Assembly: GCF_046105845.1 (NCBI RefSeq)
Contig: NZ_CP151004.1
Length of the DNA: 64,000 bases
Origin: Escherichia coli
GTDB lineage: Bacteria; Pseudomonadota; Gammaproteobacteria; Enterobacterales; Enterobacteriaceae
Direction: 5' to 3' (one strand)
Part shown: one piece after another, positions 1 to 55,862 of the stretch
How the letters are laid out: every line of letters begins with the position of its first letter
Position numbering within the stretch: the stretch's first letter is position 1
The notes under the pieces: generated by a model
What the model was told of the DNA's origin: nothing
What the model saw: only the letters and a program-made list of their open reading frames with translations
Database searches by the model: none
Position numbers and translations under genes: made by a program

Positions 1-98
<98 letters not shown>

Positions 99-137
99 TC
101 AATTACGGTTTATCCCCGATCCAACGGGGAGCACCAA

Positions 138-671
<534 letters not shown>

Positions 672-857
672 TTAACTTTGTAACGTCATAGAGTCAAAGA
701 AAAAGGCAGCCTGTGGTTGCCTTTTGCCAATAATTCGCACACATTGCGGGTTACTGCTTTATTTTCGTTCAGTGCTGATAACGAACATCAACCTGCAAAA
801 CGAAGCGCATAGTTTAAAATGGCTATCATCAATACGCTATATCTGATGGAAAAAAAT

Positions 858-1442
858 ATGCCTAAACTTATTTTAGCCTCCACCTCGCCCTGGCGTCGCG
901 CTCTTCTGGAAAAACTGCAAATCTCTTTTGAATGTGCAGCACCCGAGGTCGACGAAACTCCACACAGCGACGAATCACCGCGACAGTTGGTGCTTCGACT
1001 GGCACAAGAAAAAGCGCAATCTCTGGCGTCACGTTATCCGGATCATTTAATTATTGGTTCAGACCAGGTATGTGTTCTTGATGGCGAAATCACAGGTAAA
1101 CCGTTAACGGAAGAAAATGCCCGTCTGCAATTACGTAAAGCCAGCGGCAATATCGTCACCTTCTATACTGGACTGGCGTTGTTTAATTCGGCGAATGGGC
1201 ATCTGCAAACAGAAGTGGAGCCTTTTGACGTCCATTTCCGTCACCTGAGCGAGGCGGAGATTGATAATTACGTGCGTAAAGAGCATCCCCTGCACTGCGC
1301 GGGTAGCTTTAAGAGTGAAGGATTTGGCATTACTCTGTTTGAGCGTTTAGAGGGGCGTGATCCTAACACGCTGGTTGGTTTACCGCTAATCGCGCTGTGT
1401 CAGATGTTACGTCGGGAAGGGAAAAACCCGCTGATGGGATAG
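858..1442 (+). CDS. yceF: Maf-like nucleotide pyrophosphatase YceF
   Basis: Track ORF 819-1442; known protein starts at [14 protein letters not shown] (194 aa), so start placed at 858. Confidence 0.9.
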
Positions 1443-1450
1443 TTGTTTGC

Positions 1451-1522
1451 GCCGGATGCGGTTACTTCGCATCCGGCAATCGGTGCTGGCGGCCTGATGC
1501 GGCGTAAACGCCTTATCAGGCC
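1451..1522. repeat. REP/BIME palindromic units in the yceF-rluC convergent intergenic region
   Basis: Two imperfect palindromes of the GCCGGATGCGG...CGCATCCGGC and GGCCTGATGCGGCGTAAACGCCTTATCAGGCC type. Confidence 0.6.
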
Positions 1523-1553
1523 AACCGCCCATTATCAGGTTTATATGCTTGTA

Positions 1554-2513
1554 TTAGCGCGCGTTACGCAGCTTTTGCAAACAACGCTTCAAACCTTCAT
1601 CCATCGGCGCTTCGATACGCATCACCTCACCGGTCCCCGGATGAGTAAACTTCAACGCTGCAGCGTGCAGGAACAGGCGATTTAATCCCGTGCCTGCTTC
1701 AGTGAGCTGTCTGTCAAATTCACGGTCACCGTAGCGATCGTCAAAGGCAATCGGATGACCCGCATACTGTGTATGAACACGGATCTGATGAGTACGCCCT
1801 GTTACCGGGCTACAACGCACCAGGGTGGCAAAAGCATAGCGTTCTTCCACTTTAAAGCGTGTTTCCGACGGTTTGCCTTCCTGACTCACACGCACGATAC
1901 GTTCGCCGCTTTGCAGAATATTTTTCAGCAACGGCGCTTGAACGCTCTTCACATGCGACTGCCACTGACCGCGCACCAGCGCCAGGTAATCTTTTTGCAT
2001 CCCTTTTTCACGTAATTGCTCATGCAGAGAACGCAACGCCGAGCGTTTTTTCGCTACCAGCAACACACCTGAAGTGTCCCGGTCGAGACGATGAACCAGT
2101 TCAAGGAACCGCGCTTCCGGGCGCAACGCCCGCAAACCTTCGATAACGCCGAAGCTTAAACCACTGCCGCCATGTACCGCCGTACCGGAAGGTTTATTCA
2201 GCACCAGGATATGGTCATCTTCATATAAGATGACGTCCGCCAGCGCTGCCACCTTTTGCAGATGTGGCGAAACCGCCTCTTCTTCCCGCTCAGCAACGCG
2301 AACCGGTGGGATACGCACCTCATCACCCGCTTCGAGTTTATATTCAGGCTTAATACGTTTTTTGTTCACCCGCACTTCGCCTTTACGCAAAATACGGTAA
2401 ATCATACTTTTTGGTACGCCTTTCAATTGGGTACGCAAAAAGTTATCGATACGTTGCCCCGCTTCGTCAGCGGTGATAGCAACAATTTTTACGGATGGAG
2501 TCTCTGTTTTCAT
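1554..2513 (-). CDS. rluC: 23S rRNA pseudouridine(955/2504/2580) synthase RluC
   Basis: 319-aa ORF, full-length match to RluC (S4 domain plus pseudouridine synthase core HRLDRDTSG). Confidence 0.92.
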   Translation of the reverse strand: MKTETPSVKIVAITADEAGQRIDNFLRTQLKGVPKSMIYRILRKGEVRVNKKRIKPEYKLEAGDEVRIPPVRVAEREEEAVSPHLQKVAALADVILYEDDHILVLNKPSGTAVHGGSGLSFGVIEGLRALRPEARFLELVHRLDRDTSGVLLVAKKRSALRSLHEQLREKGMQKDYLALVRGQWQSHVKSVQAPLLKNILQSGERIVRVSQEGKPSETRFKVEERYAFATLVRCSPVTGRTHQIRVHTQYAGHPIAFDDRYGDREFDRQLTEAGTGLNRLFLHAAALKFTHPGTGEVMRIEAPMDEGLKRCLQKLRNAR

Positions 2514-2639
2514 GGTGGGCGATTCTAATTAGCCAACAGGATTCGCGCCACTCATTTTTCTATGCTTATATTTAGTTTTGCACCTTATTACTTCACTACG
2601 TGATCACTTTATTGATGGTTATTAAACCAATTACCAGCA

Positions 2640-3085
2640 AGAAGTGAAAAAACTGTGAGTAAGCGGGTGATAAATGGTAAAAGTCATCTTGCTATAACAA
2701 GGCTTGCAGTGGAATAATGAGGCCGTTTCCGTGTCCATCCTTGTTAAAACAAGAAATTTTACGGAATAACCCATTTTGCCCGACCGATCATCCACGCAGC
2801 AATGGCGTAAGACGTATTGATCTTTCAGGCAGTTAGCGGGCTGCGGGTTGCAGTCCTTACCGGTAGATGGAAATATTTCTGGAGAGTAATACCCAGTCTG
2901 TTTCTTTGATAATTGCGCTGTTTTTCCGCATGAAAAACGGGCAACCGACACTCTGCGCCTCTTTGAGCTGACGATAACCGTGAGGTTGGCGACGCGACTA
3001 GACACGAGGCCATCGGTTCACACCCGGAAAGGCGTTACTTTGCCCGCAGCTTAGTCGTCAATGTAAGAATAATGAGTAAGTTACG
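2640..3085 (+). promoter_or_regulatory. rne promoter and long structured 5' leader (RNase E autoregulation region); boundaries approximate
   Basis: About 450 bp of non-coding sequence directly upstream of rne; the long autoregulatory rne leader is established knowledge; promoter elements not mapped here. Confidence 0.4.
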
Positions 3086-6000
3086 ATGAAAAGAATGTTA
3101 ATCAACGCAACTCAGCAGGAAGAGTTGCGCGTTGCCCTTGTAGATGGGCAGCGTCTGTATGACCTGGATATCGAAAGTCCAGGGCACGAGCAGAAAAAGG
3201 CAAACATCTACAAAGGTAAAATCACCCGCATTGAACCGAGTCTGGAAGCTGCTTTTGTTGATTACGGCGCTGAACGTCACGGTTTCCTCCCACTAAAAGA
3301 AATTGCCCGCGAATATTTCCCTGCTAACTACAGTGCTCATGGTCGCCCCAACATTAAAGATGTGTTGCGTGAAGGTCAGGAAGTCATTGTTCAGATCGAT
3401 AAAGAAGAGCGCGGCAACAAAGGCGCGGCATTAACCACCTTTATCAGTCTGGCGGGTAGCTATCTGGTTCTGATGCCGAACAACCCGCGCGCGGGTGGCA
3501 TTTCTCGTCGTATCGAAGGCGACGACCGTACCGAATTAAAAGAAGCACTGGCAAGCCTTGAACTGCCGGAAGGCATGGGGCTTATCGTGCGCACCGCTGG
3601 CGTCGGCAAATCTGCTGAGGCGCTGCAATGGGATTTAAGCTTCCGTCTGAAACACTGGGAAGCCATCAAAAAAGCCGCTGAAAGCCGCCCAGCTCCGTTC
3701 CTGATTCATCAGGAGAGCAACGTAATCGTTCGCGCATTCCGCGATTACTTACGTCAGGACATCGGCGAAATCCTTATCGATAACCCGAAAGTGCTCGAAC
3801 TGGCACGCCAGCATATCGCTGCATTAGGTCGCCCGGATTTCAGCAGCAAAATCAAACTGTACACCGGCGAGATCCCGCTGTTCAGCCACTACCAGATCGA
3901 GTCACAGATTGAGTCCGCCTTCCAGCGTGAAGTTCGTCTGCCATCCGGTGGTTCCATTGTTATCGACAGCACCGAAGCGTTAACGGCCATCGACATCAAC
4001 TCCGCACGCGCGACCCGCGGCGGCGATATCGAAGAAACCGCGTTTAACACTAACCTCGAAGCTGCCGATGAGATTGCTCGTCAGCTGCGCCTGCGTGACC
4101 TCGGCGGCCTGATTGTTATCGACTTCATCGACATGACGCCAGTACGCCACCAGCGTGCGGTAGAAAACCGTCTGCGTGAAGCGGTGCGTCAGGACCGTGC
4201 GCGTATTCAAATCAGCCATATTTCTCGCTTTGGCCTGCTGGAAATGTCCCGTCAGCGCCTGAGCCCATCACTGGGTGAATCCAGCCATCACGTCTGCCCG
4301 CGCTGCTCCGGTACCGGTACCGTGCGTGACAACGAATCGCTGTCGCTCTCTATTCTGCGTCTGATCGAAGAAGAAGCGCTGAAAGAGAACACCCAGGAAG
4401 TTCACGCCATTGTTCCTGTGCCAATCGCTTCTTACCTGCTGAATGAAAAACGTTCTGCAGTGAATGCGATTGAAACTCGTCAGGACGGCGTGCGCTGTGT
4501 GATTGTGCCAAACGATCAGATGGAAACCCCGCACTACCATGTGCTGCGCGTGCGTAAAGGGGAAGAAACTCCAACCTTAAGCTACATGCTGCCGAAGCTG
4601 CATGAAGAAGCGATGGCGCTGCCGTCTGAAGAAGAGTTCGCTGAACGTAAGCGTCCTGAACAACCTGCGCTGGCAACCTTTGCCATGCCGGATGTGCCGC
4701 CAGCTCCAACCCCAGCTGAACCTGCCGCGCCTGTTGTAGCCCCAGCACCTAAAGCTGCAACGGCAACACCAGCATCTCCTGCACAACCAGGGTTGTTGAG
4801 CCGCTTCTTCGGCGCACTGAAAGCGCTGTTCAGCGGTGGTGAAGAAACCAAACCGGCCGAGCAACCAGCACCGAAAGCAGAAGCGAAACCGGAACGTCAA
4901 CAGGATCGTCGCAAGCCTCGTCAGAACAACCGCCGTGACCGTAATGAGCGCCGCGACACCCGTAGTGAACGTACTGAAGGCAGCGATAATCGCGAAGAAA
5001 ACCGTCGTAATCGTCGCCAGGCACAGCAGCAGACTGCCGAGACGCGTGAGAGCCGTCAGCAGGCTGAGGTAACGGAAAAAGCACGTACCACCGACGAGCA
5101 GCAAGCGCCGCGTCGTGAACGTAGCCGCCGCCGTAACGATGATAAACGTCAGGCGCAACAAGAAGCGAAGGCGCTGAATGTTGAAGAGCAATCTGTTCAG
5201 GAAACCGAACAGGAAGAACGTGTACGTCCAGTTCAGCCGCGTCGTAAACAGCGTCAGCTCAATCAGAAAGTGCGTTACGAGCAAAGCGTAGCCGAAGAAG
5301 CGGTAGTCGCACCGGTGGTTGAAGAAACTGTCGCTGCCGAACCAATTGTTCAGGAAGCGCCAGCTCCACGCACAGAACTGGTGAAAGTCCCGCTGCCAGT
5401 CGTAGCGCAAGCTGCACCAGAACAGCAAGAAGAGAACAATGCCGATAACCGTGACAACGGTGGCATGCCGCGTCGTTCTCGCCGCTCGCCTCGTCACCTG
5501 CGCGTGAGTGGTCAGCGTCGTCGTCGCTATCGTGACGAGCGTTATCCAACCCAATCGCCAATGCCGTTGACCGTAGCGTGCGCATCTCCGGAACTGGCCT
5601 CTGGCAAAGTCTGGATCCGCTATCCAATTGTACGTCCGCAAGATGTACAGGTCGAAGAGCAGCGCGAACAGGAAGAAGTACAAGTGCAGCCGATGGTGAC
5701 TGAGGTCCCTGTCGCCGCCGCTGTCGAACCTGTTGTTAGCGCACCGGTTGTTGAAGAAGTGGCTGAAGTTGTAGAAGCACCCGTTCATGTTGCCGAACCG
5801 CAACCGGAAGTGGTTGAAACGACGCATCCTGAAGTAATTGCCGCCGCGGTAACTGAACAGCCGCAGGTGATTACCGAGTCTGATGTTGCCGTAGCCCAGG
5901 AAGTTGCAGAACACGCAGAACCGGTGGTTGAACCGCAGGAAGAGACGGCTGATATTGAAGAAGTTGCCGAAACTGCTGAGGTTGTGGTTGCTGAACCTGA

Positions 6001-6271
6001 AGTTGTTGCTCAACCTGCCGCGCCAGTCGTCGCTGAAGTCGCAGCAGAAGTTGAAACGGTAGCCGCGGTTAAACCTGAGGTCACCGTTGAGCATAACCAC
6101 GCTACCGCGCCAATGACGCGCGCTCCGGCACCGGAATATGTTCCGGAGGCACCGCGTCACAGTGACTGGCAGCGCCCTACTTTTGCCTTCGAAGGTAAAG
6201 GTGCTGCAGGTGGTCATACGGCAACACATCATGCCTCTGCCGCTCCTGCGCGTCCGCAACCTGTTGAGTAA
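3086..6271 (+). CDS. rne: Ribonuclease E
   Basis: 1061-aa ORF; N-terminal catalytic domain ([30 protein letters not shown]...) and Arg/Pro/Glu-rich low-complexity C-terminal scaffold. Confidence 0.97.
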
Positions 6272-6290
6272 AAATTAGCTCAAGTAATCA

Positions 6291-6320
6291 AGCCCTGGTA
6301 ACTGCCAGGGCTTTTTTATT
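6291..6320 (+). terminator. Rho-independent terminator of rne
   Basis: Hairpin AGCCCTGGTAACTGCCAGGGCT followed by TTTTTTATTT, 20 bp after the rne stop. Confidence 0.6.
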
Positions 6321-6384
6321 TCATGTTTGAATCAACATATTAAAATTCATCAAATGGCATCCTTGCTAACCAACAATGCAAAAT

Positions 6385-6425
6385 AGGCAAAAAAAATGCC
6401 CGCCCCGGCGATCCCAGAGCGGGCA
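6385..6425 (-). terminator. Rho-independent terminator of flgL
   Basis: On the minus strand, stem GCCCGC/GCGGGC followed by a T-run (A-run 6385-6396 on plus), just downstream of the flgL stop. Confidence 0.5.
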
Positions 6426-6466
6426 GACAAAACATACCCAGTTTCATGATATGTTTTAAAGCGAGC

Positions 6467-7420
6467 TTATTTGTTGAGCTGGAAGAGCGACAATCCCTGC
6501 ATATCGGTAAATGCTTTATACGATGCTTGCAATGCCGTTTGCTGCATGATGTAAGATGAAATAGTTGCATTCCAGTCCACATCAACCAGATCGCTCATCT
6601 GCTGCGTTTGCCCTAAAGCGCGATCGCTACCTAATGAATCCAGCGACTCCAGTTCGTTCAGCTGCGTGCCTAATTCCGCGCGAACAGTCAGCACATTGTT
6701 CAGCGAGTTTTTCAGTCCGCGGTTGGTTTTATCCAGTGCCGCAGCGGCGGTTTCTTTATCCGCTTCGCTATCCGCGACCGGCGTTTTCAGGGCTGCGATG
6801 GCGCTATCCAGCATGGCAAAAAGATTGGTTTCAGAAGCGCTACCGTCTGGTTCCGCTACCGCGTTGCTGGTAATACTGTCGAAAATTTTGTCACCCGTGT
6901 GCCCTATCACCATCGAACGCGAAGCATCGACCTGTTGTTTAATACTTTCTGCTCCGCCTTCGTATTTGCCATCCGCCTCGCTAAACGGTGCAGATTCTGT
7001 TTTATAACCGGCAAAAATGTAGCGCCCGTTACCGTCAGTGGTGTTCGCCAGATTCAGCAACTGGTCACGAAGCCCCTGAATATCCGTAGCCAGCGAGGCC
7101 CGGTCATCGTCACTCAAGGTGCCATTGCTGGCGTAGACAATTTTTTCCTGAGCATTCTGGATAGCAGTGGTGACCTGGCTAAGTACACTCTCTTCCAGTG
7201 ACACTTTTTGAGTGGCGAAAGTACGCGCCAGCGTGTACTGGCTGTTTTGCGCCTGTGCCTGGGAGAGAACAACAGCTTGTGATGCAGCAATGGGATCATC
7301 TGAAGGGTTAACGACTCGCTTACCCGTCGACATCTGTTCACCGTACTTCATCCATTCTGCCTGAGAATTGGTGATGCCGCGCATGTTTTGCTGGTACATC
7401 ATCTGGGTACTGAAACGCAT
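6467..7420 (-). CDS. flgL: Flagellar hook-associated protein 3
   Basis: 317-aa ORF; flagellin-like N/C termini; last gene of the flgB-L operon order. Confidence 0.95.
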   Translation of the reverse strand: MRFSTQMMYQQNMRGITNSQAEWMKYGEQMSTGKRVVNPSDDPIAASQAVVLSQAQAQNSQYTLARTFATQKVSLEESVLSQVTTAIQNAQEKIVYASNGTLSDDDRASLATDIQGLRDQLLNLANTTDGNGRYIFAGYKTESAPFSEADGKYEGGAESIKQQVDASRSMVIGHTGDKIFDSITSNAVAEPDGSASETNLFAMLDSAIAALKTPVADSEADKETAAAALDKTNRGLKNSLNNVLTVRAELGTQLNELESLDSLGSDRALGQTQQMSDLVDVDWNATISSYIMQQTALQASYKAFTDMQGLSLFQLNK

Positions 7421-35456: not shown

Positions 35457-39639
<4,183 letters not shown>

Positions 39640-49985: not shown

Positions 49986-50039
49986 AACTCTCTCCTGTAT
50001 TCAATTCCCGCCAAGGATAGCAGGAAACCTGATGCTTTA

Positions 50040-51017
<978 letters not shown>

Positions 51018-51211
51018 TTATCGTTATGATCAACAAAAGCTACCAGCATAACAAATCCGTGGTCGGTGGCAAAAAAAGCAGATTTCGCTTATTAAAACCA
51101 CACATTGATTGAAGTTTGAATAAACGCGCGATTTTTTAAAAAAGTTTGTTGACCTCAGGTCATGATTTCCCTAAATTAGCGCCCGTTCCAGCAAGACAGG
51201 AACGACAATTT

Positions 51212-51299
51212 GGTGAGGTGTCCGAGTGGCTGAAGGAGCACGCCTGGAAAGTGTGTATACGGCAACGTATCGGGGGTTCGAATCCCCCCCTCACCGCCA
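51212..51299 (+). tRNA. serX: tRNA-Ser (anticodon GGA), 88 nt with long variable arm
   Basis: GGTGAGGTGTCCGAGTGGCTGAAGGAGCACGCCTGGAAAGTGTGTATACGGCAACGTATCGGGGGTTCGAATCCCCCCCTCACCGCCA: acceptor stem pairs, anticodon loop CT-GGA-AA, T-loop GGTTCGAATCC, 3' CCA encoded. Confidence 0.92.
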
Positions 51300-51925
51300 T
51301 CTTTAAAGAAGAGCTCGTACGAAGGTACGGGCTTTTTTTTCGTATATTGCACACACCGGGGGATGAGAAGCCCCGACCGGGGTTCGACAACTGGCGACAG
51401 CCAGTTGGACAGACCGTGAACGCAGTGAGCGGGCTGCCCGCAGGGCGAGCGAAGCGAGTCAATCCCCCCTCACCGCCATCTTTAAAGAAGAGCTCGTACG
51501 AAGGTACGGGCTTTTTTTTCGTATATTGCACACACCGGGGGATGAGAAGCCCCGACCGGGGTTCGACAACTGGCGACAGCCAGTTGGACAGACCGTGAAC
51601 GCAGTGAGCGGGCTGCCCGCAGGGCGAGCGAAGCGAGTCAATCCCCCCTCACCGCCATCTTTAAAGAAGAGCTCGTACGAAGGTACGGGCTTTTTTTTCG
51701 TATATTGCACACACCGGGGGATGAGAAGCCCCGACCGGGGTTCGACAACTGGCGACAGCCAGTTGGACAGACCGTGAACGCAGTGAGCGGGCTGCCCGCA
51801 GGGCGAGCGAAGCGAGTCAATCCCCCCCTCACCGCCATCTTTAAAGAAGAGCTCGTACGAAAGTACGGGCTTCTTTTTCGTATATTGCACACACCGGGGG
51901 GATGAGAAGCCCCGATCGGGGTACT
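51281..51925. repeat. Tandem direct repeats, 179-180 bp unit, about 3.5 copies, each beginning with a copy of the serX 3' end and terminator hairpin
   Basis: Units start at 51301, 51480, 51659 and 51839 (CTTTAAAGAAGAGCTCGTACGAAGGTACGGGCTTTTTTTTCG...); copies near-identical; last copy degenerate (GAAAG loop, CTTCTTTTT); each unit ends with AATCCCCCCTCACCGCCATC resembling the tRNA T-arm/acceptor 3' half. Confidence 0.9.
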
Positions 51926-51928
51926 TAG

Positions 51929-52615
51929 TTAATGCAACGGTTCACCCTTTGTCGCCGCGGCTAATGGGCGAATTTTGTCACGGGTATCCCAGACCGGAGG
52001 GATTTCATCCAATTTAGTGACAGAAGCTCGTACAAAAGGCACCCGTGCAATAGTCATAATCGTATTCAACCAACGGTCACGAATAATGCGATCTGCCCTT
52101 TCATGACTCGGATCATCCAGCTCAATAACACAGACTATTTTGTTGTTCTTCTTTGAAATCAGAACATAATCCATTGCCATTCCATTATAAATTGCAAAGA
52201 AACGCTTTCTTTCTTCTTCGCTAAACTCGGGTTGTTCTGGAAAGTTGATCAAGCGCCCCAGAGAGACCTGGCAATGGATATGACAATAATGTCCAAACCA
52301 TTTCTCCAGATTATCAAAATAGATTTTTTCACAACGCGTAATTAACCACTCTTTTCCTTCCAATAAAATACCTTCGGCAACCATTCCCTGGAACAACTCA
52401 TCTCGTTCTTGCCAACGAGAGTCACGATAGGTTTTCTGCGGTGTATAGCTCCTTGTCGACGCCTTAGCCGCAGGGGAAGTTGCAGAGGAAGGGACTGGTT
52501 GCGATCTAGTGATGATTACCGATGAGGCAACTTTTCGGAGTGTCAATTTTCTGGCAACAGCAAAACCGGCGACAAATGCAATTGTCAAACAAGTTACAAA
52601 AACCATAAAGCTCAT
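51929..52615 (-). CDS. Hypothetical membrane-anchored protein (228 aa), function unknown
   Basis: ATG at 52613-52615 with AGGTGA RBS 9 nt upstream; N-terminal TM helix MSFMVFVTCLTIAFVAGFAVA, Ser/Pro-rich linker, C-terminal soluble domain with HYCHIHC and IELDDPSHERADRIIRDR; occupies the position of ycdU in K-12 (from memory) but identity not verified. Confidence 0.6.
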   Translation of the reverse strand: MSFMVFVTCLTIAFVAGFAVARKLTLRKVASSVIITRSQPVPSSATSPAAKASTRSYTPQKTYRDSRWQERDELFQGMVAEGILLEGKEWLITRCEKIYFDNLEKWFGHYCHIHCQVSLGRLINFPEQPEFSEEERKRFFAIYNGMAMDYVLISKKNNKIVCVIELDDPSHERADRIIRDRWLNTIMTIARVPFVRASVTKLDEIPPVWDTRDKIRPLAAATKGEPLH

Positions 52616-53127
52616 AATTAATCTTCACCTATCCATGTTGATTATATTTCATTACTAACGCTACTCGCTGTAGCGAGTTACATGCCAACAATTCAACGAA
52701 CTATATATAGTTAGTATCATGTTTTGATTATTACAACCATCCCTATTTTACCATTGCGGCTTGCCGTCCACAAAAAATAACAACACACAATATTAGCTGA
52801 AGAATTAATTAAGATTAACCTTATATTTTTAATATTATCCCTAAAAAATAAAATCAGGAGAATATATTCGGTGTTAATCAGTCAGTCAAATTATGGCCCA
52901 TTGCTGATTAAACCTCATACGCAAAATTGGCACCAGACCTCCTGTACAGGTTGAATGGCTGGAAAAAGATAGGCAAAAAACTCTCCGCGCTGGCGGCATT
53001 ACATTGGTCGGGTGCTATGACGAAAAATGCCTGGTAAAAGCATCTAAACCAGAATTCATTTCAGCTTATCAACACGCTCAAAGTCGCCCCCCAGAACGTT
53101 AACCTGAAGTGAAAGTCTTTGCTGTTA

Positions 53128-53159
53128 ATGAAATAAAACAAAGCCCGGTTCGCCCGGGC
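53128..53159 (-). terminator. Rho-independent terminator of phoH
   Basis: Minus-strand hairpin GCCCGG-GCGAA-CCGGGC followed by TTTGTTTTATTT, 20 bp after the phoH stop. Confidence 0.5.
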
Positions 53160-53177
53160 TCTGTACCGATAATACAC

Positions 53178-54101
53178 TTAACTGTATGCATGTAGCGTAC
53201 GTTGGCAAAGTGCCGAACGTACGCAATCCTCTTTACCGAATCGGACGATCCCGACCATTTCATCTTCTTCGAAACGTTCCAGCGCGTCACTTAATCCGGA
53301 TCGCACGCCGCGAGGCAAATCGCATTGCGTGATATCACCGTTGACGATAACCGTCACGTTCTCCCCGAGGCGGGTTAAAAACATTTTCATTTGCGCGGCA
53401 GTCACATTCTGCGCCTCGTCAAGAATGACGACTGCATTTTCAAAGGTACGTCCACGCATATAGGCGAACGGCGCAATTTCCACCTTCCCTATTTCCGGTC
53501 GCAGGCAGTACTGCATAAAGGAAGCCCCTAAGCGCCGGACCAGCACGTCGTAGACCGGGCGAAAATAGGGAGCAAACTTTTCTGCGATATCACCAGGTAA
53601 GAAGCCAAGATCTTCATCGGCTTGCAGAACTGGACGGGTGACGATAATCCTGTCGACATCCTTATGTATCAGGGCCTCTGCCGCTTTTGCTGCGCTGATC
53701 CAGGTTTTTCCGCACCCGGCTTCGCCCGTGGCGAATATCAGCTGCTTACTCTCAATAGCCTTCAGATAGTGCAATTGCGCTTCATTTCGCGCGAGGATGG
53801 GCGAGGTATCGCGACTGTCGCGGGCCATACCAATGGCTTCTACGCCGCTCATCTGCACAAGCGAGGTGACCGATTCTTCTTCACGCTGCTTATGGCTGCG
53901 CGAATCCCGTCTCAGCACACGTTTTGCCTCGCGACGAGCTTTGATCACTGCTTTTTGTCTTCCCATGGAGAGCACCTTGAGTTGTTTGTATTCATCACAC
54001 GCGCCGTTGGCAGCGCGATTATGCGCACGAACATCAGAGGGTTGGCTTCCTTGTAAGCCATAGTTTGCTTTTGGATAAAATGCCGAAAAACGGCTACGCA
54101 C
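53178..54101 (-). CDS. phoH: Phosphate starvation-inducible ATPase PhoH; N-terminal extent uncertain
   Basis: Longest in-frame ORF is 307 codons from GTG 54101 (first ATG at 53966, MGRQKAVIKARREAKR..., giving 262 aa); Walker A GEAGCGKT and PhoH core conserved; see finding on a possible 5' frameshift. Confidence 0.85.
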   Translation of the reverse strand: MRSRFSAFYPKANYGLQGSQPSDVRAHNRAANGACDEYKQLKVLSMGRQKAVIKARREAKRVLRRDSRSHKQREEESVTSLVQMSGVEAIGMARDSRDTSPILARNEAQLHYLKAIESKQLIFATGEAGCGKTWISAAKAAEALIHKDVDRIIVTRPVLQADEDLGFLPGDIAEKFAPYFRPVYDVLVRRLGASFMQYCLRPEIGKVEIAPFAYMRGRTFENAVVILDEAQNVTAAQMKMFLTRLGENVTVIVNGDITQCDLPRGVRSGLSDALERFEEDEMVGIVRFGKEDCVRSALCQRTLHAYS

Positions 54102-54389
54102 ACCGTTTGCGGCGTCGGTAACACGAGTAAAGAGAGGAAGTGAGAAAAATACAGAGTGACGAAGTTGCTACCGGAGGAGAAATCTCCGCGAGTGGTGGAG
54201 CCTTGCTTAACAAAACATTGTCCAGAACAGGACGTTACCATCCGCGATCTCCATAGTGACTGACTATCACTGCCGGGAACTTCCGCTGCTACTTAATAAG
54301 TACAACAGATCTCGCATTCATTGCAACAATATATTCACTTATATTTAACTACAAAACACCATTTCAGTGACATTAGTTTCTACTGGAAA

Positions 54390-54408
54390 GATGACAGAGT
54401 GATGACAG
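54390..54408 (-). promoter_or_regulatory. Pho box (PhoB binding site) upstream of phoH
   Basis: Minus-strand CTGTCATCACTCTGTCATC: two direct CTGTCAT repeats with the 11-bp periodicity of the Pho box consensus. Confidence 0.55.
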
Positions 54409-54439
54409 TGATGAAAAAAGCTGTGTGCTTTCAGCAGGA

Positions 54440-54575
54440 TTCGCATCAGGCATCAGCGCACGAACGCCGGATGCGGCGTGAACGCCTGATCCAGCCTACC
54501 AAACCCGCACCGATTGTAGGCATGATAAGACGCGCAAGCGTCGCATCAGGCATCTGCGCACAAATGCCTTATACG
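54440..54575. repeat. REP/BIME cluster between phoH promoter region and efeB
   Basis: Several REP-type palindromes (GCATCAGGCATCAGCGCACGAACGCCGGATGCGGCGTGAACGCCTGATCCAGCCTAC etc.). Confidence 0.55.
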
Positions 54576-54585
54576 CCTAAAAACA

Positions 54586-55857
54586 TTAAACCCGCAATAA
54601 CGCGCTTCCGAGATAATCGTTCGCGTTCTTCACTCCCGGCAGCGCAAAGAAATAGCCGCCACCGATAGGTTTGACATATTCCTCCAGCGCCTCGCCATTC
54701 AACCTTTTTTGTACTGTCAGGAAGCCCTTTTCCAGATCGTGTTGGTAGCAGACAAACAGTAGCCCCATATCCAGTTGTCCGGAGTTGGTGACGCCCAACG
54801 AATAACTGTAGCCACGACGCAGCATCAGGCTGGACTCACTCTCCGCCGTGCGGGGATTCGCCAGCCGGATATGGCTGTCCAGCGCAATCACCTTCCCTTC
54901 CGGATCGCTAGCGTAATCGGGAACATCATGCTCATGCTGCATGCCCAGCGGCGCACCGGTTTGCTTATCACGACCAAATATCGTCTGCTGCTCTTTCAGC
55001 GGCGTTCTGTCCCAAAATTCCACTCGAAACTGAATCAAGCGTACTGCCTGATAGCTGCCACCGATTGTCCACGCAGGCTCCTGCTGATCTGCCGTCACCC
55101 ACACCACTTTTTGCATCAACTTATCATTCTGGCTATCGGGATTGGCAGTGCCGTCTTTGAAACCCAGCAAATTAATCGGCGTCTCTTTGCCTTTACTACG
55201 CGCCGCGTGATCGGAAATAAACCCTTCCCGCTTCCAGCGCACACTGAGCAAATCCGGCGTGTGTTTGATGATATCGCGCAGCGCATGGATCACCGTGTCC
55301 TGGGTGTTGGCGCAAATCTGTAGCAACACATCACCATGACATAACGCCGCATCCAGCGAGTCGTTGGGGAAACGCGTCATCTTCTGCAGCTTTTTTGGCA
55401 TCTGTGGCGCAAGGCCAAAGCGCTCATTAAACAATGAGTGACCCACCGATAACGTGATGGTGAGATTATCGGGCGCAATGTAGCCGCCAAGAATGCCGGA
55501 ATCGAGTGGTGGCAGGCGCGGATTTGGCGTTTCTGGTGCTGCTCCGCCCTGAGTCAGAAAAGCAAAACGCTGAGTCAACAAGCGAAACAACCGCTCAAGA
55601 TCGGCTTTATCGCTGGCAAGCACATCAAACGCCACCAGCATCATTGCGGCCTGTTGTGGCGTCAGGATCCCTGCCTGATGCTCACCATAAAACGGCTGTT
55701 TCTCATTGCGTGCATCCGGTGAAAGCGTACCCGGCGCACTTTGCGTTTTTTGTGCATGAGCGACCGGACAACTTCCCGCCAGCGCCAGTGCACCAATCCC
55801 TTTCAGTAAACGTCGGCGTGACGGTTCATTCACGCCGTTTTCATCTTTATACTGCAT
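54586..55857 (-). CDS. efeB: Dye-decolorising (DyP-type) haem peroxidase / deferrochelatase EfeB, Tat-secreted
   Basis: 423-aa ORF with twin-arginine signal [23 protein letters not shown]. Confidence 0.93.
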
Positions 55858-55862
55858 AACGT

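Follow-up and report, generated by a model that had tools for sequence, protein, structure and literature searches.

The short phoH–serX interval of an Escherichia coli strain: probably an old alternative haplotype rather than the scar of a pga-island deletion

The region between phoH and serX in Escherichia coli differs greatly in length between strains. In the annotated K-12 record the order is phoH, pgaDCBA, dgcT, IS3D, ymdE, ycdU, serX and ghrA, and the phoH–serX interval measures 11,508 bp. In the 64-kb stretch of E. coli DNA analysed here (the window; overall GC 50.3%, its positions used as coordinates), the same interval measured 1,878 bp. An initial annotation had noticed this junction of ~1.9 kb, had set it against the K-12 order, and had read the place as a possible deletion junction marked by the stump of a lost gene. 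The length of the junction and the K-12 order were both borne out. The analysis suggested, nevertheless, that the locus in the window is probably an old alternative haplotype and not a deletion scar.

The limits of homology were determined by blastn of window positions 50000–55000 against the K-12 locus. Positions 50000–51898/51922, with ghrA, serX and the repeat array next to it, corresponded to K-12 1098864–1096961, and positions 53135–55000, from the phoH terminator into efeB, corresponded to K-12 1086099–1084233, collinear with the first block. The sequence between them (51923–53134) showed no similarity to the 10,861 bp at the corresponding K-12 place. The pga-dgcT-ymdE-ycdU block was absent here, as had been proposed, and the conserved flanks efeB/phoH and serX/ghrA/ycdX adjoined without pgaABCD, dgcT, ymdE and ycdU. 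By tblastn, PgaA-D, DgcT and YcdU had no match in the whole window, except for a weak glycosyltransferase similarity at 36741–36995. Judged by alignment, 1,212 bp of unrelated DNA stands in place of the K-12 block. This variable segment lay between the phoH terminator and, on the serX side, a truncated distal repeat unit. Comparison of the junction sequences showed that the terminator was the phoH-side boundary common to both haplotypes, that with pga and that of the window, while the distal repeat unit was cut ~24 bp apart in the two.

One account of a missing block is that this lineage lost a K-12-like pgaABCD-dgcT-ymdE-ycdU block by deletion, with an open frame of 64 codons left next to phoH as a 3′ stump at the junction. 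The absence of the block from the window is what such a deletion would leave. However, no residue homologous to genes of the deleted block was detected at the junction by blastn, tblastn, profile search or the PgaD hidden Markov model (HMM). Moreover, the 228-amino-acid (aa) open reading frame (ORF) reported for the segment was found to be an intact, conserved gene of the DUF2726 family that K-12 lacks, and loss of DNA cannot create such a gene. The remainder up to phoH, noted earlier as ~560 bp of AT-rich DNA, was measured to be 562 bp of low-GC DNA (52616–53177, from the DUF2726 start to the phoH stop).

The frame at 52908–53102 was examined as the proposed stump. It contained exactly 64 open codons, ending ...SAYQHAQSRPPER*, with no ATG or GTG and one internal TTG. 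The suggestion that it is the remnant of a gene held, but the gene was not one of the missing block: the frame belongs to a decayed yciI-like gene. When 1.84 billion proteins were searched with a profile of the frame, neither PgaD nor DgcT nor YcdU was among the matches. In a set of 5.8 billion proteins, the homologues of the frame were all short E. coli fragments varying by insertions and deletions; some E. coli alleles reached an 85-aa ORF starting MLISQSNFGPL..., which matches a GTG at 52871 behind an AGGAG motif. Scanning of 80 Enterobacteriaceae species representatives identified an intact 97-aa gene at the same position, converging on phoH, in Citrobacter youngae and C. werkmanii. The C. 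youngae protein matched Pfam YCII (PF03795) with 52.9 bits, and alignment of the E. coli allele profile with it by hhalign gave a probability of 95.6% (E 1.1e-8). Remnants in E. albertii matched residues 2–83 of the 97-aa Citrobacter protein (tblastn/blastp). These similarities indicate that 52871–53134, of which the 64-codon frame forms the middle part, is homologous to the YCII family but degraded, a presumed pseudogene. In the window copy the reading frame is shifted near 52905 and again at the 3′ end, 27 bp are deleted, and the C-terminal third is lost; by alignment, the 27-bp deletion was common to the sublineage of the window. The pseudogene itself had no Pfam match at E ≤ 1, and an intact YCII reading frame of ~95–100 aa was not present in the window copy. 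As a separate observation, a 77-aa protein, P0036, consisted of an AbrB-like N-terminus (MKSTGIVRKVDELGR...) joined to E. coli yciI-pseudogene sequence at ...KIGTRSPVQVEW, and is probably a chimeric assembly or construct.

The frame nevertheless matches pgaD in orientation and position relative to phoH, and in strain E8 a homologue of the frame continues the reading frame of pgaD after codons 1–82, both as a deletion stump would. The case of E8 prompted the candidate explanation that the frame is a variant 3′ end of pgaD, which was rejected. The pgaD-frame junction was seen in 1 of 5,426 complete E. coli genomes. The Pfam PgaD model, which covers residues 4–125 of K-12 PgaD, ended at residue 83 of the E8 hybrid, and word and profile searches of the 5.8-billion and 1.84-billion protein sets yielded no full-length PgaD with the C-terminus of the frame. 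The E8 patch was 99.2% identical to the DUF2726-type B1 strain 97-3250 and lay within a K-12-like backbone; the E8 junction was therefore regarded as a one-off illegitimate recombinant. The E8 locus (L004, NZ_CP104526.1) was mosaic at 5667–6194, and it also carried an IS1-mediated deletion from ycdU to pgaC. Partial, IS1-mediated deletions of the pga island do occur, in E8 and in USMARC-51688, and they lend the deletion account some plausibility. The homology of the window frame, on the other hand, is to YCII proteins and not to PgaD.

The arrangement of the window was not confined to a derived state within E. coli. E. albertii NBRC 107761 showed the order phoH, decayed YCII gene, DUF2726 (87% aa identity), two repeat units of the RtT type, serX and ghrA, and Escherichia sp. 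MOD1-EC7003 showed phoH, decayed YCII gene and DUF2726 (93%). Synonymous divergence (dS) between the window and E. albertii was 0.41 for DUF2726, 0.33 for phoH and 0.71 for ghrA; relative to Salmonella it was about 1.8 for DUF2726, 1.84 for phoH and saturated for ghrA. Within E. coli the values were 0.10–0.12 for DUF2726, 0.04–0.05 for phoH and 0.05 for ghrA. By these values, DUF2726 has diverged at much the same pace as the core genes beside it. With this flank-like divergence and an unusual diversity within E. coli, the segment does not look like a recent deletion derivative. In Salmonella enterica a DUF2726 orthologue (72% aa identity) was located directly downstream of phoH and had the same orientation. 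Next to it came an rve-family transposase and, further on, serX-ghrA, with genes of a type VI secretion system (T6SS) or a YCII gene found there instead in some genomes. When the phoH-DUF2726 spacer was aligned directly with Salmonella, the gene alone aligned, and the region of the YCII pseudogene had no counterpart.

How common the two states are was determined in the 5,426 complete genomes. The 1,212-bp segment was found in 1,051 of them (~19%; 1,043 at a coverage of at least 80%) and pgaC in 4,382 (~81%). The two counts sum to 5,433 against 5,426 genomes, so the two states are almost perfectly alternative. The overlap was checked with a combined query, consisting of the segment and 600 bp of pgaC, on 12 segment-positive chromosomes sampled across the ranking. 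All 12 DUF2726-type chromosomes had one matching place each, and therefore no pgaC elsewhere on the chromosome record; among them was AF40, the closest relative at 99.2% identity. The haplotype was distributed over several phylogroups, and 697 genomes had 90–95% identity to the segment of the window. A filler of 1,212 bp unlike the K-12 block, an intact and constrained gene, the same layout in E. albertii and a share of 19% of genomes all speak against the deletion junction first proposed, and we regard loss of a K-12-like block in this lineage as extremely unlikely.

The preferred explanation is an old alternative haplotype. The DUF2726 haplotype would predate the split of E. coli and E. albertii, in which case it would be an old alternative state and not the scar of a K-12-like deletion. 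Several observations weigh against this explanation. Gene order is not collinear between the genera, being phoH, DUF2726, YCII in Salmonella and phoH, YCII, DUF2726 in Escherichia. Within 10 kb of phoH, the representatives of subsp. arizonae and diarizonae were without DUF2726 and YCII. The same site is occupied by pgaDCBA-dgcT in a divergent Escherichia lineage (L022), whose PgaA and PgaB are only 80% identical to K-12, and both states are therefore old. The pga island is the majority state in E. coli, and the GC content of the segment is as low as expected of acquired DNA. For the remainder of the source genome, the absence of pga would follow by analogy with the relatives, 64 kb having been examined.

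Some of the same observations fit a reverse order of events, in which pga was ancestral in E. coli and the DUF2726/YCII segment was imported from another Escherichia lineage, displaced pga and spread patchily. Such an import would agree with the prevalence of pga and its presence at the same site in the divergent lineage, with the low GC of the segment, and with a segment that occurs in several phylogroups and diverges internally more than its flanks. Yet phoH of the DUF2726-type strains is ordinary E. coli phoH (dS to K-12 of 0.04–0.05), with no sign of an imported tract, and the high allele diversity within E. coli would call for an import that was old or happened more than once. The divergence of the E. 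albertii copy equals that of the core flanks, and outside E. coli, pga was located at phoH–serX in only 1 of the 80 species representatives, which favours pga as the newer element in the genus. Import of the segment into a pga-bearing ancestor is therefore considered unlikely. Which state came first can be inferred less firmly than the age of the DUF2726 haplotype. Homologous recombination in the conserved flanks has probably moved the two states from one lineage to another.

The comparison with other species showed that the place is variable well beyond these two states. In ~20 of the 80 representatives, such as C. koseri, C. amalonaticus and C. portucalensis, serX lay ~0.1–0.9 kb from phoH, and many others contained duplicated serX copies around ~3 kb of inserted DNA. 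In Escherichia sp. E1V33 (L023, 10903–12349) the gap between phoH and the RtT units was filled by an unrelated low-GC cassette encoding a multi-pass membrane protein of 286 aa and a second protein of 125 aa; MOD1-EC7003 carried a molybdoenzyme cluster beyond DUF2726, and strain 97-3250 had a tyrosine-integrase island at serX. In Salmonella, SPI-19 is integrated at the 3′ end of serX (Blondel et al. 2009, PMC2907695). Several cargos occur at this site, the pga island and the DUF2726/YCII segment among them. A candidate for the ancestral empty site, 'E. coli E69' (L020, CP089930.1; 10760–11080), was rejected: it has lost the phoH terminator, and the stop region of phoH directly joins an RtT unit at its middle. 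It is a derived, third deletion-type state with neither pga nor DUF2726.

It is conceivable from this setting that the segment is what remains of a larger mobile island at serX, either a SPI-19-like T6SS island or an integrative and conjugative element, eroded down to DUF2726. The phoH-adjacent DUF2726 gene of Salmonella borders a transposase and SPI-19-type T6SS genes, and the integration of SPI-19 at serX (PMC2907695) is in line with such an origin. Homologues of DUF2726 at 48–53% identity were found inside or beside T6SS clusters in two contexts, and homologues at 37–46% identity were found beside integrases in conjugative elements, also in two contexts; the DUF2726 family therefore travels as accessory cargo. 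An association with T6SS only was rejected, two of the distant contexts being T6SS clusters and two conjugative elements; one further look-up gave no result. In the Citrobacter-like loci L014–L016, the homologue (6001–6660, 53% identity) was situated between a gene with an ImpA_N/VasJ domain (TssA-like) and tssF of the T6SS core cluster. A literature search found no paper naming both DUF2726 and type VI secretion, and thus none that ties the two together. Against erosion from an island, the window segment contains no remnants of integrase, T6SS or transfer genes, DUF2726 is kept in Salmonella genomes without the T6SS island (L011), and the gene is under purifying selection instead of decaying. 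An eroded island is thus very unlikely.

The phoH–serX interval is a tRNA-linked hypervariable hot spot, the cargo being enclosed by the phoH terminator and the distal end of the 179-bp repeat array. Two states occur in E. coli, a 10.9-kb pgaABCD-dgcT-(IS3)-ymdE-ycdU island (~81%) and a 1.2-kb segment of DUF2726, spacer and decayed YCII gene (~19%). The segment differs from a classical tRNA-integrated island: no integrase gene was found in 51923–53134, and copies of the tRNA 3′ end, located in the RtT units, were present on the serX side only and did not flank the cargo on both sides.

The array next to serX was confirmed as the serX repeats of the initial annotation. Each 179-bp unit started with the last ~20 nt of serX and contained a terminator-like hairpin. 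The array was common to the window and K-12, its distal truncated copy being the serX-side boundary of the variable segment, and the number of units varied among strains. Against Rfam RtT, with a gathering score of 45, the units fell slightly short at 43.1, 43.1 and 41.1 bits (E 3e-6 to 9e-6), and equivalent units are labelled 'RtT sRNA' by PGAP in related E. coli genomes.

The DUF2726 gene matched Pfam PF10881 over residues 90–205 with 65.8 bits against a cut-off of 24.7. In the AlphaFold model (mean predicted local distance difference test score, pLDDT, of 77.8) a helix spans residues 3–30, confidence is low at residues 25–59, and the DUF2726 domain is an alpha/beta fold predicted well, with pLDDT of 86–98. 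The predicted architecture comprises an N-terminal transmembrane helix, a disordered Pro/Ser/Ala-rich linker and a C-terminal restriction-endonuclease-like DUF2726 domain. The top Foldseek matches of the model were BstEII, BpuSI, TnsA and BsaWI, with low TM-scores of ~0.2–0.3. Residues D149, E165, D168 and H171 were invariant among DUF2726 homologues. Eight Escherichia loci were examined, that of the window among them, and in each the gene was intact at 228 aa. The ratio of nonsynonymous to synonymous divergence (dN/dS) was 0.23–0.33 within E. coli and 0.15 relative to E. albertii, and fell to 0.04–0.08 over the DUF2726 domain. These ratios show purifying selection and indicate a functional gene. 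Assignment to a known defence system or a named protein was rejected, for the protein had no match in PADLOC (E ≤ 1), NCBIfam or PDB sequences. A further explanation was considered, in which DUF2726 is a selectively maintained, membrane-tethered nuclease-like protein and pga versus DUF2726 is a long-lived balanced polymorphism across Escherichia. If so, PNAG (poly-N-acetylglucosamine) biofilm formation and immune visibility would be traded, for example, against a function in DNA targeting or inter-bacterial competition. We hold this to be decidedly unlikely.

Upstream of the DUF2726 gene, the spacer at 52616–52870 presumably holds its promoter; a promoter scan gave weak promoter-like matches only. 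The inverted repeat ACTCGCT-GT-AGCGAGT described for this region exists, but at 52663–52678, a few bases to the right of the 52654–52672 first assigned to it, and its centre precedes the start codon of DUF2726 by 55 bp. The repeat was perfect only in the window and in loci L002 and L103; one arm was mutated in L100, L101, L102 and L021, and both arms were mutated in E. albertii. The perfect form arose by one substitution. The arms vary outside the sublineage of the window, and the repeat was rejected as a conserved operator. Inverted repeats in the spacer somewhat exceeded the expectation from shuffled sequences (3 observed, mean 0.35), but the three are overlapping registers of just two palindromes, namely the phoH terminator and the repeat described here. 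The coordinates of the locus are collected in Table 1.

Table 1. Features of the ghrA–phoH region of the window, in window positions
Feature	Positions	Strand	Basis and remarks
ghrA (glyoxylate/hydroxypyruvate reductase A)	50040–50978	-	ORF list; ghrA annotated in matching RefSeq genomes; conserved flank, serX side
serX, tRNA-Ser(GGA)	51212–51299	+	ARAGORN; Rfam tRNA 53.8 bits
Tandem array of RtT-like units	51285–51922	+	TRF: period 179, 3.6 copies, 98% matches
Haplotype-specific segment	51923–53134	no strand	1,212 bp, 40.6% GC; blastn breakpoints against K-12
DUF2726 gene, 228 aa, intact	51929–52615	-	ORF list; Pfam PF10881
AT-rich divergent spacer between DUF2726 gene and yciI-like pseudogene	52616–52870	no strand	29.8% GC
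Putative yciI-like (YCII family) pseudogene, converging on phoH	52871–53134	+	43.6% GC; homology to Citrobacter YCII protein
phoH intrinsic terminator	53138–53164	-	Terminator scan: 11-bp stem, 7 G-C pairs, T tail
phoH	53178–53966	-	ORF list; PGAP annotation in matching genomes; conserved flank

The matching genomes in RefSeq are annotated with the same layout, namely ghrA, tRNA-Ser, (RtT sRNA), DUF2726 protein and phoH. The identity of ghrA to K-12 and strain 1190 was 97–99%. A few observations concern the sequence around the variable segment. On the plus strand, positions 53183–53376 matched Rfam Ysr251 (Yersinia sRNA 251) with 194 bits (E 4e-54); this match is antisense to the 3′ end of phoH and may simply reflect conservation of the phoH coding sequence. 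Elements resembling repetitive extragenic palindromes were present between phoH and efeB (54456–54592, minus strand), with sub-threshold matches to Rfam naRNA4 of 40 and 32 bits. For efeB-efeO-efeU-putP-putA (54000–64000), the best identity among the complete E. coli genomes was 97.4%, and the ghrA-ycdY side of the window had 99.4% identity to strain 1190. The window looks mosaic on the basis of these identities, with an unusually divergent efe-put segment.

The alternative haplotype would have consequences for the phenotype. For the strain of the window, neither PNAG production nor the diguanylate cyclase DgcT is predicted, and about one fifth of sequenced E. coli, this strain included, would be expected to be PNAG-negative and DgcT-less as well. 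Such a state would bear on biofilm phenotypes and on the coverage of anti-PNAG vaccines or antibodies. The K-12 layout should probably not be read as the ancestral form of phoH–serX, and a short interval there need not be a deletion scar.

The locus can be compared with several known systems. In its account of the region, Goldstone et al. (2016, Sci Rep, PMC4951805) report that pgaABCD-ycdT-insEF-ymdE-ycdU is missing in 10–20% of phylogroup A strains, place it between conserved flanks, efeB/phoH and ghrA/ycdXYZ, and call the region an apparent genome island. The boundaries and the missing block, as described there, are identical to those of the window, and the frequencies are similar, 10–20% of phylogroup A as compared with 19% of all complete genomes here. 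The window is an instance of this already known presence/absence polymorphism of the pga island, now in more detail: whereas that account gives the presence or absence of genes only, the filler is identified here as a DUF2726 gene and a putative YCII pseudogene, common to E. albertii. The phoH–serX/SPI-19 region of Salmonella (PMC2907695) is the same hot spot and has a DUF2726 orthologue beside phoH as in the window; it differs in its YCII gene beyond DUF2726, its rve-family transposase and, in some serovars, a 45-kb T6SS island, none of which was found in the window. The serX array is like the tyrT-rtT locus (Rfam RF00391), where 178-bp repeats each contain a tRNA 3′ end, with a period of 179 bp, but it is located downstream of serX instead of tyrT. 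Among YCII proteins (PF03795), the 97-aa Citrobacter members share position and orientation beside phoH with the pseudogene of the window, which departs from the family in its frameshift, 27-bp deletion and lost C-terminus and falls below any Pfam threshold. With other DUF2726 proteins (PF10881), finally, the protein of the window shares a clear Pfam match and a predicted fold resembling restriction endonucleases and TnsA, and its subfamily would be set apart from them by the predicted N-terminal membrane anchor and disordered linker.

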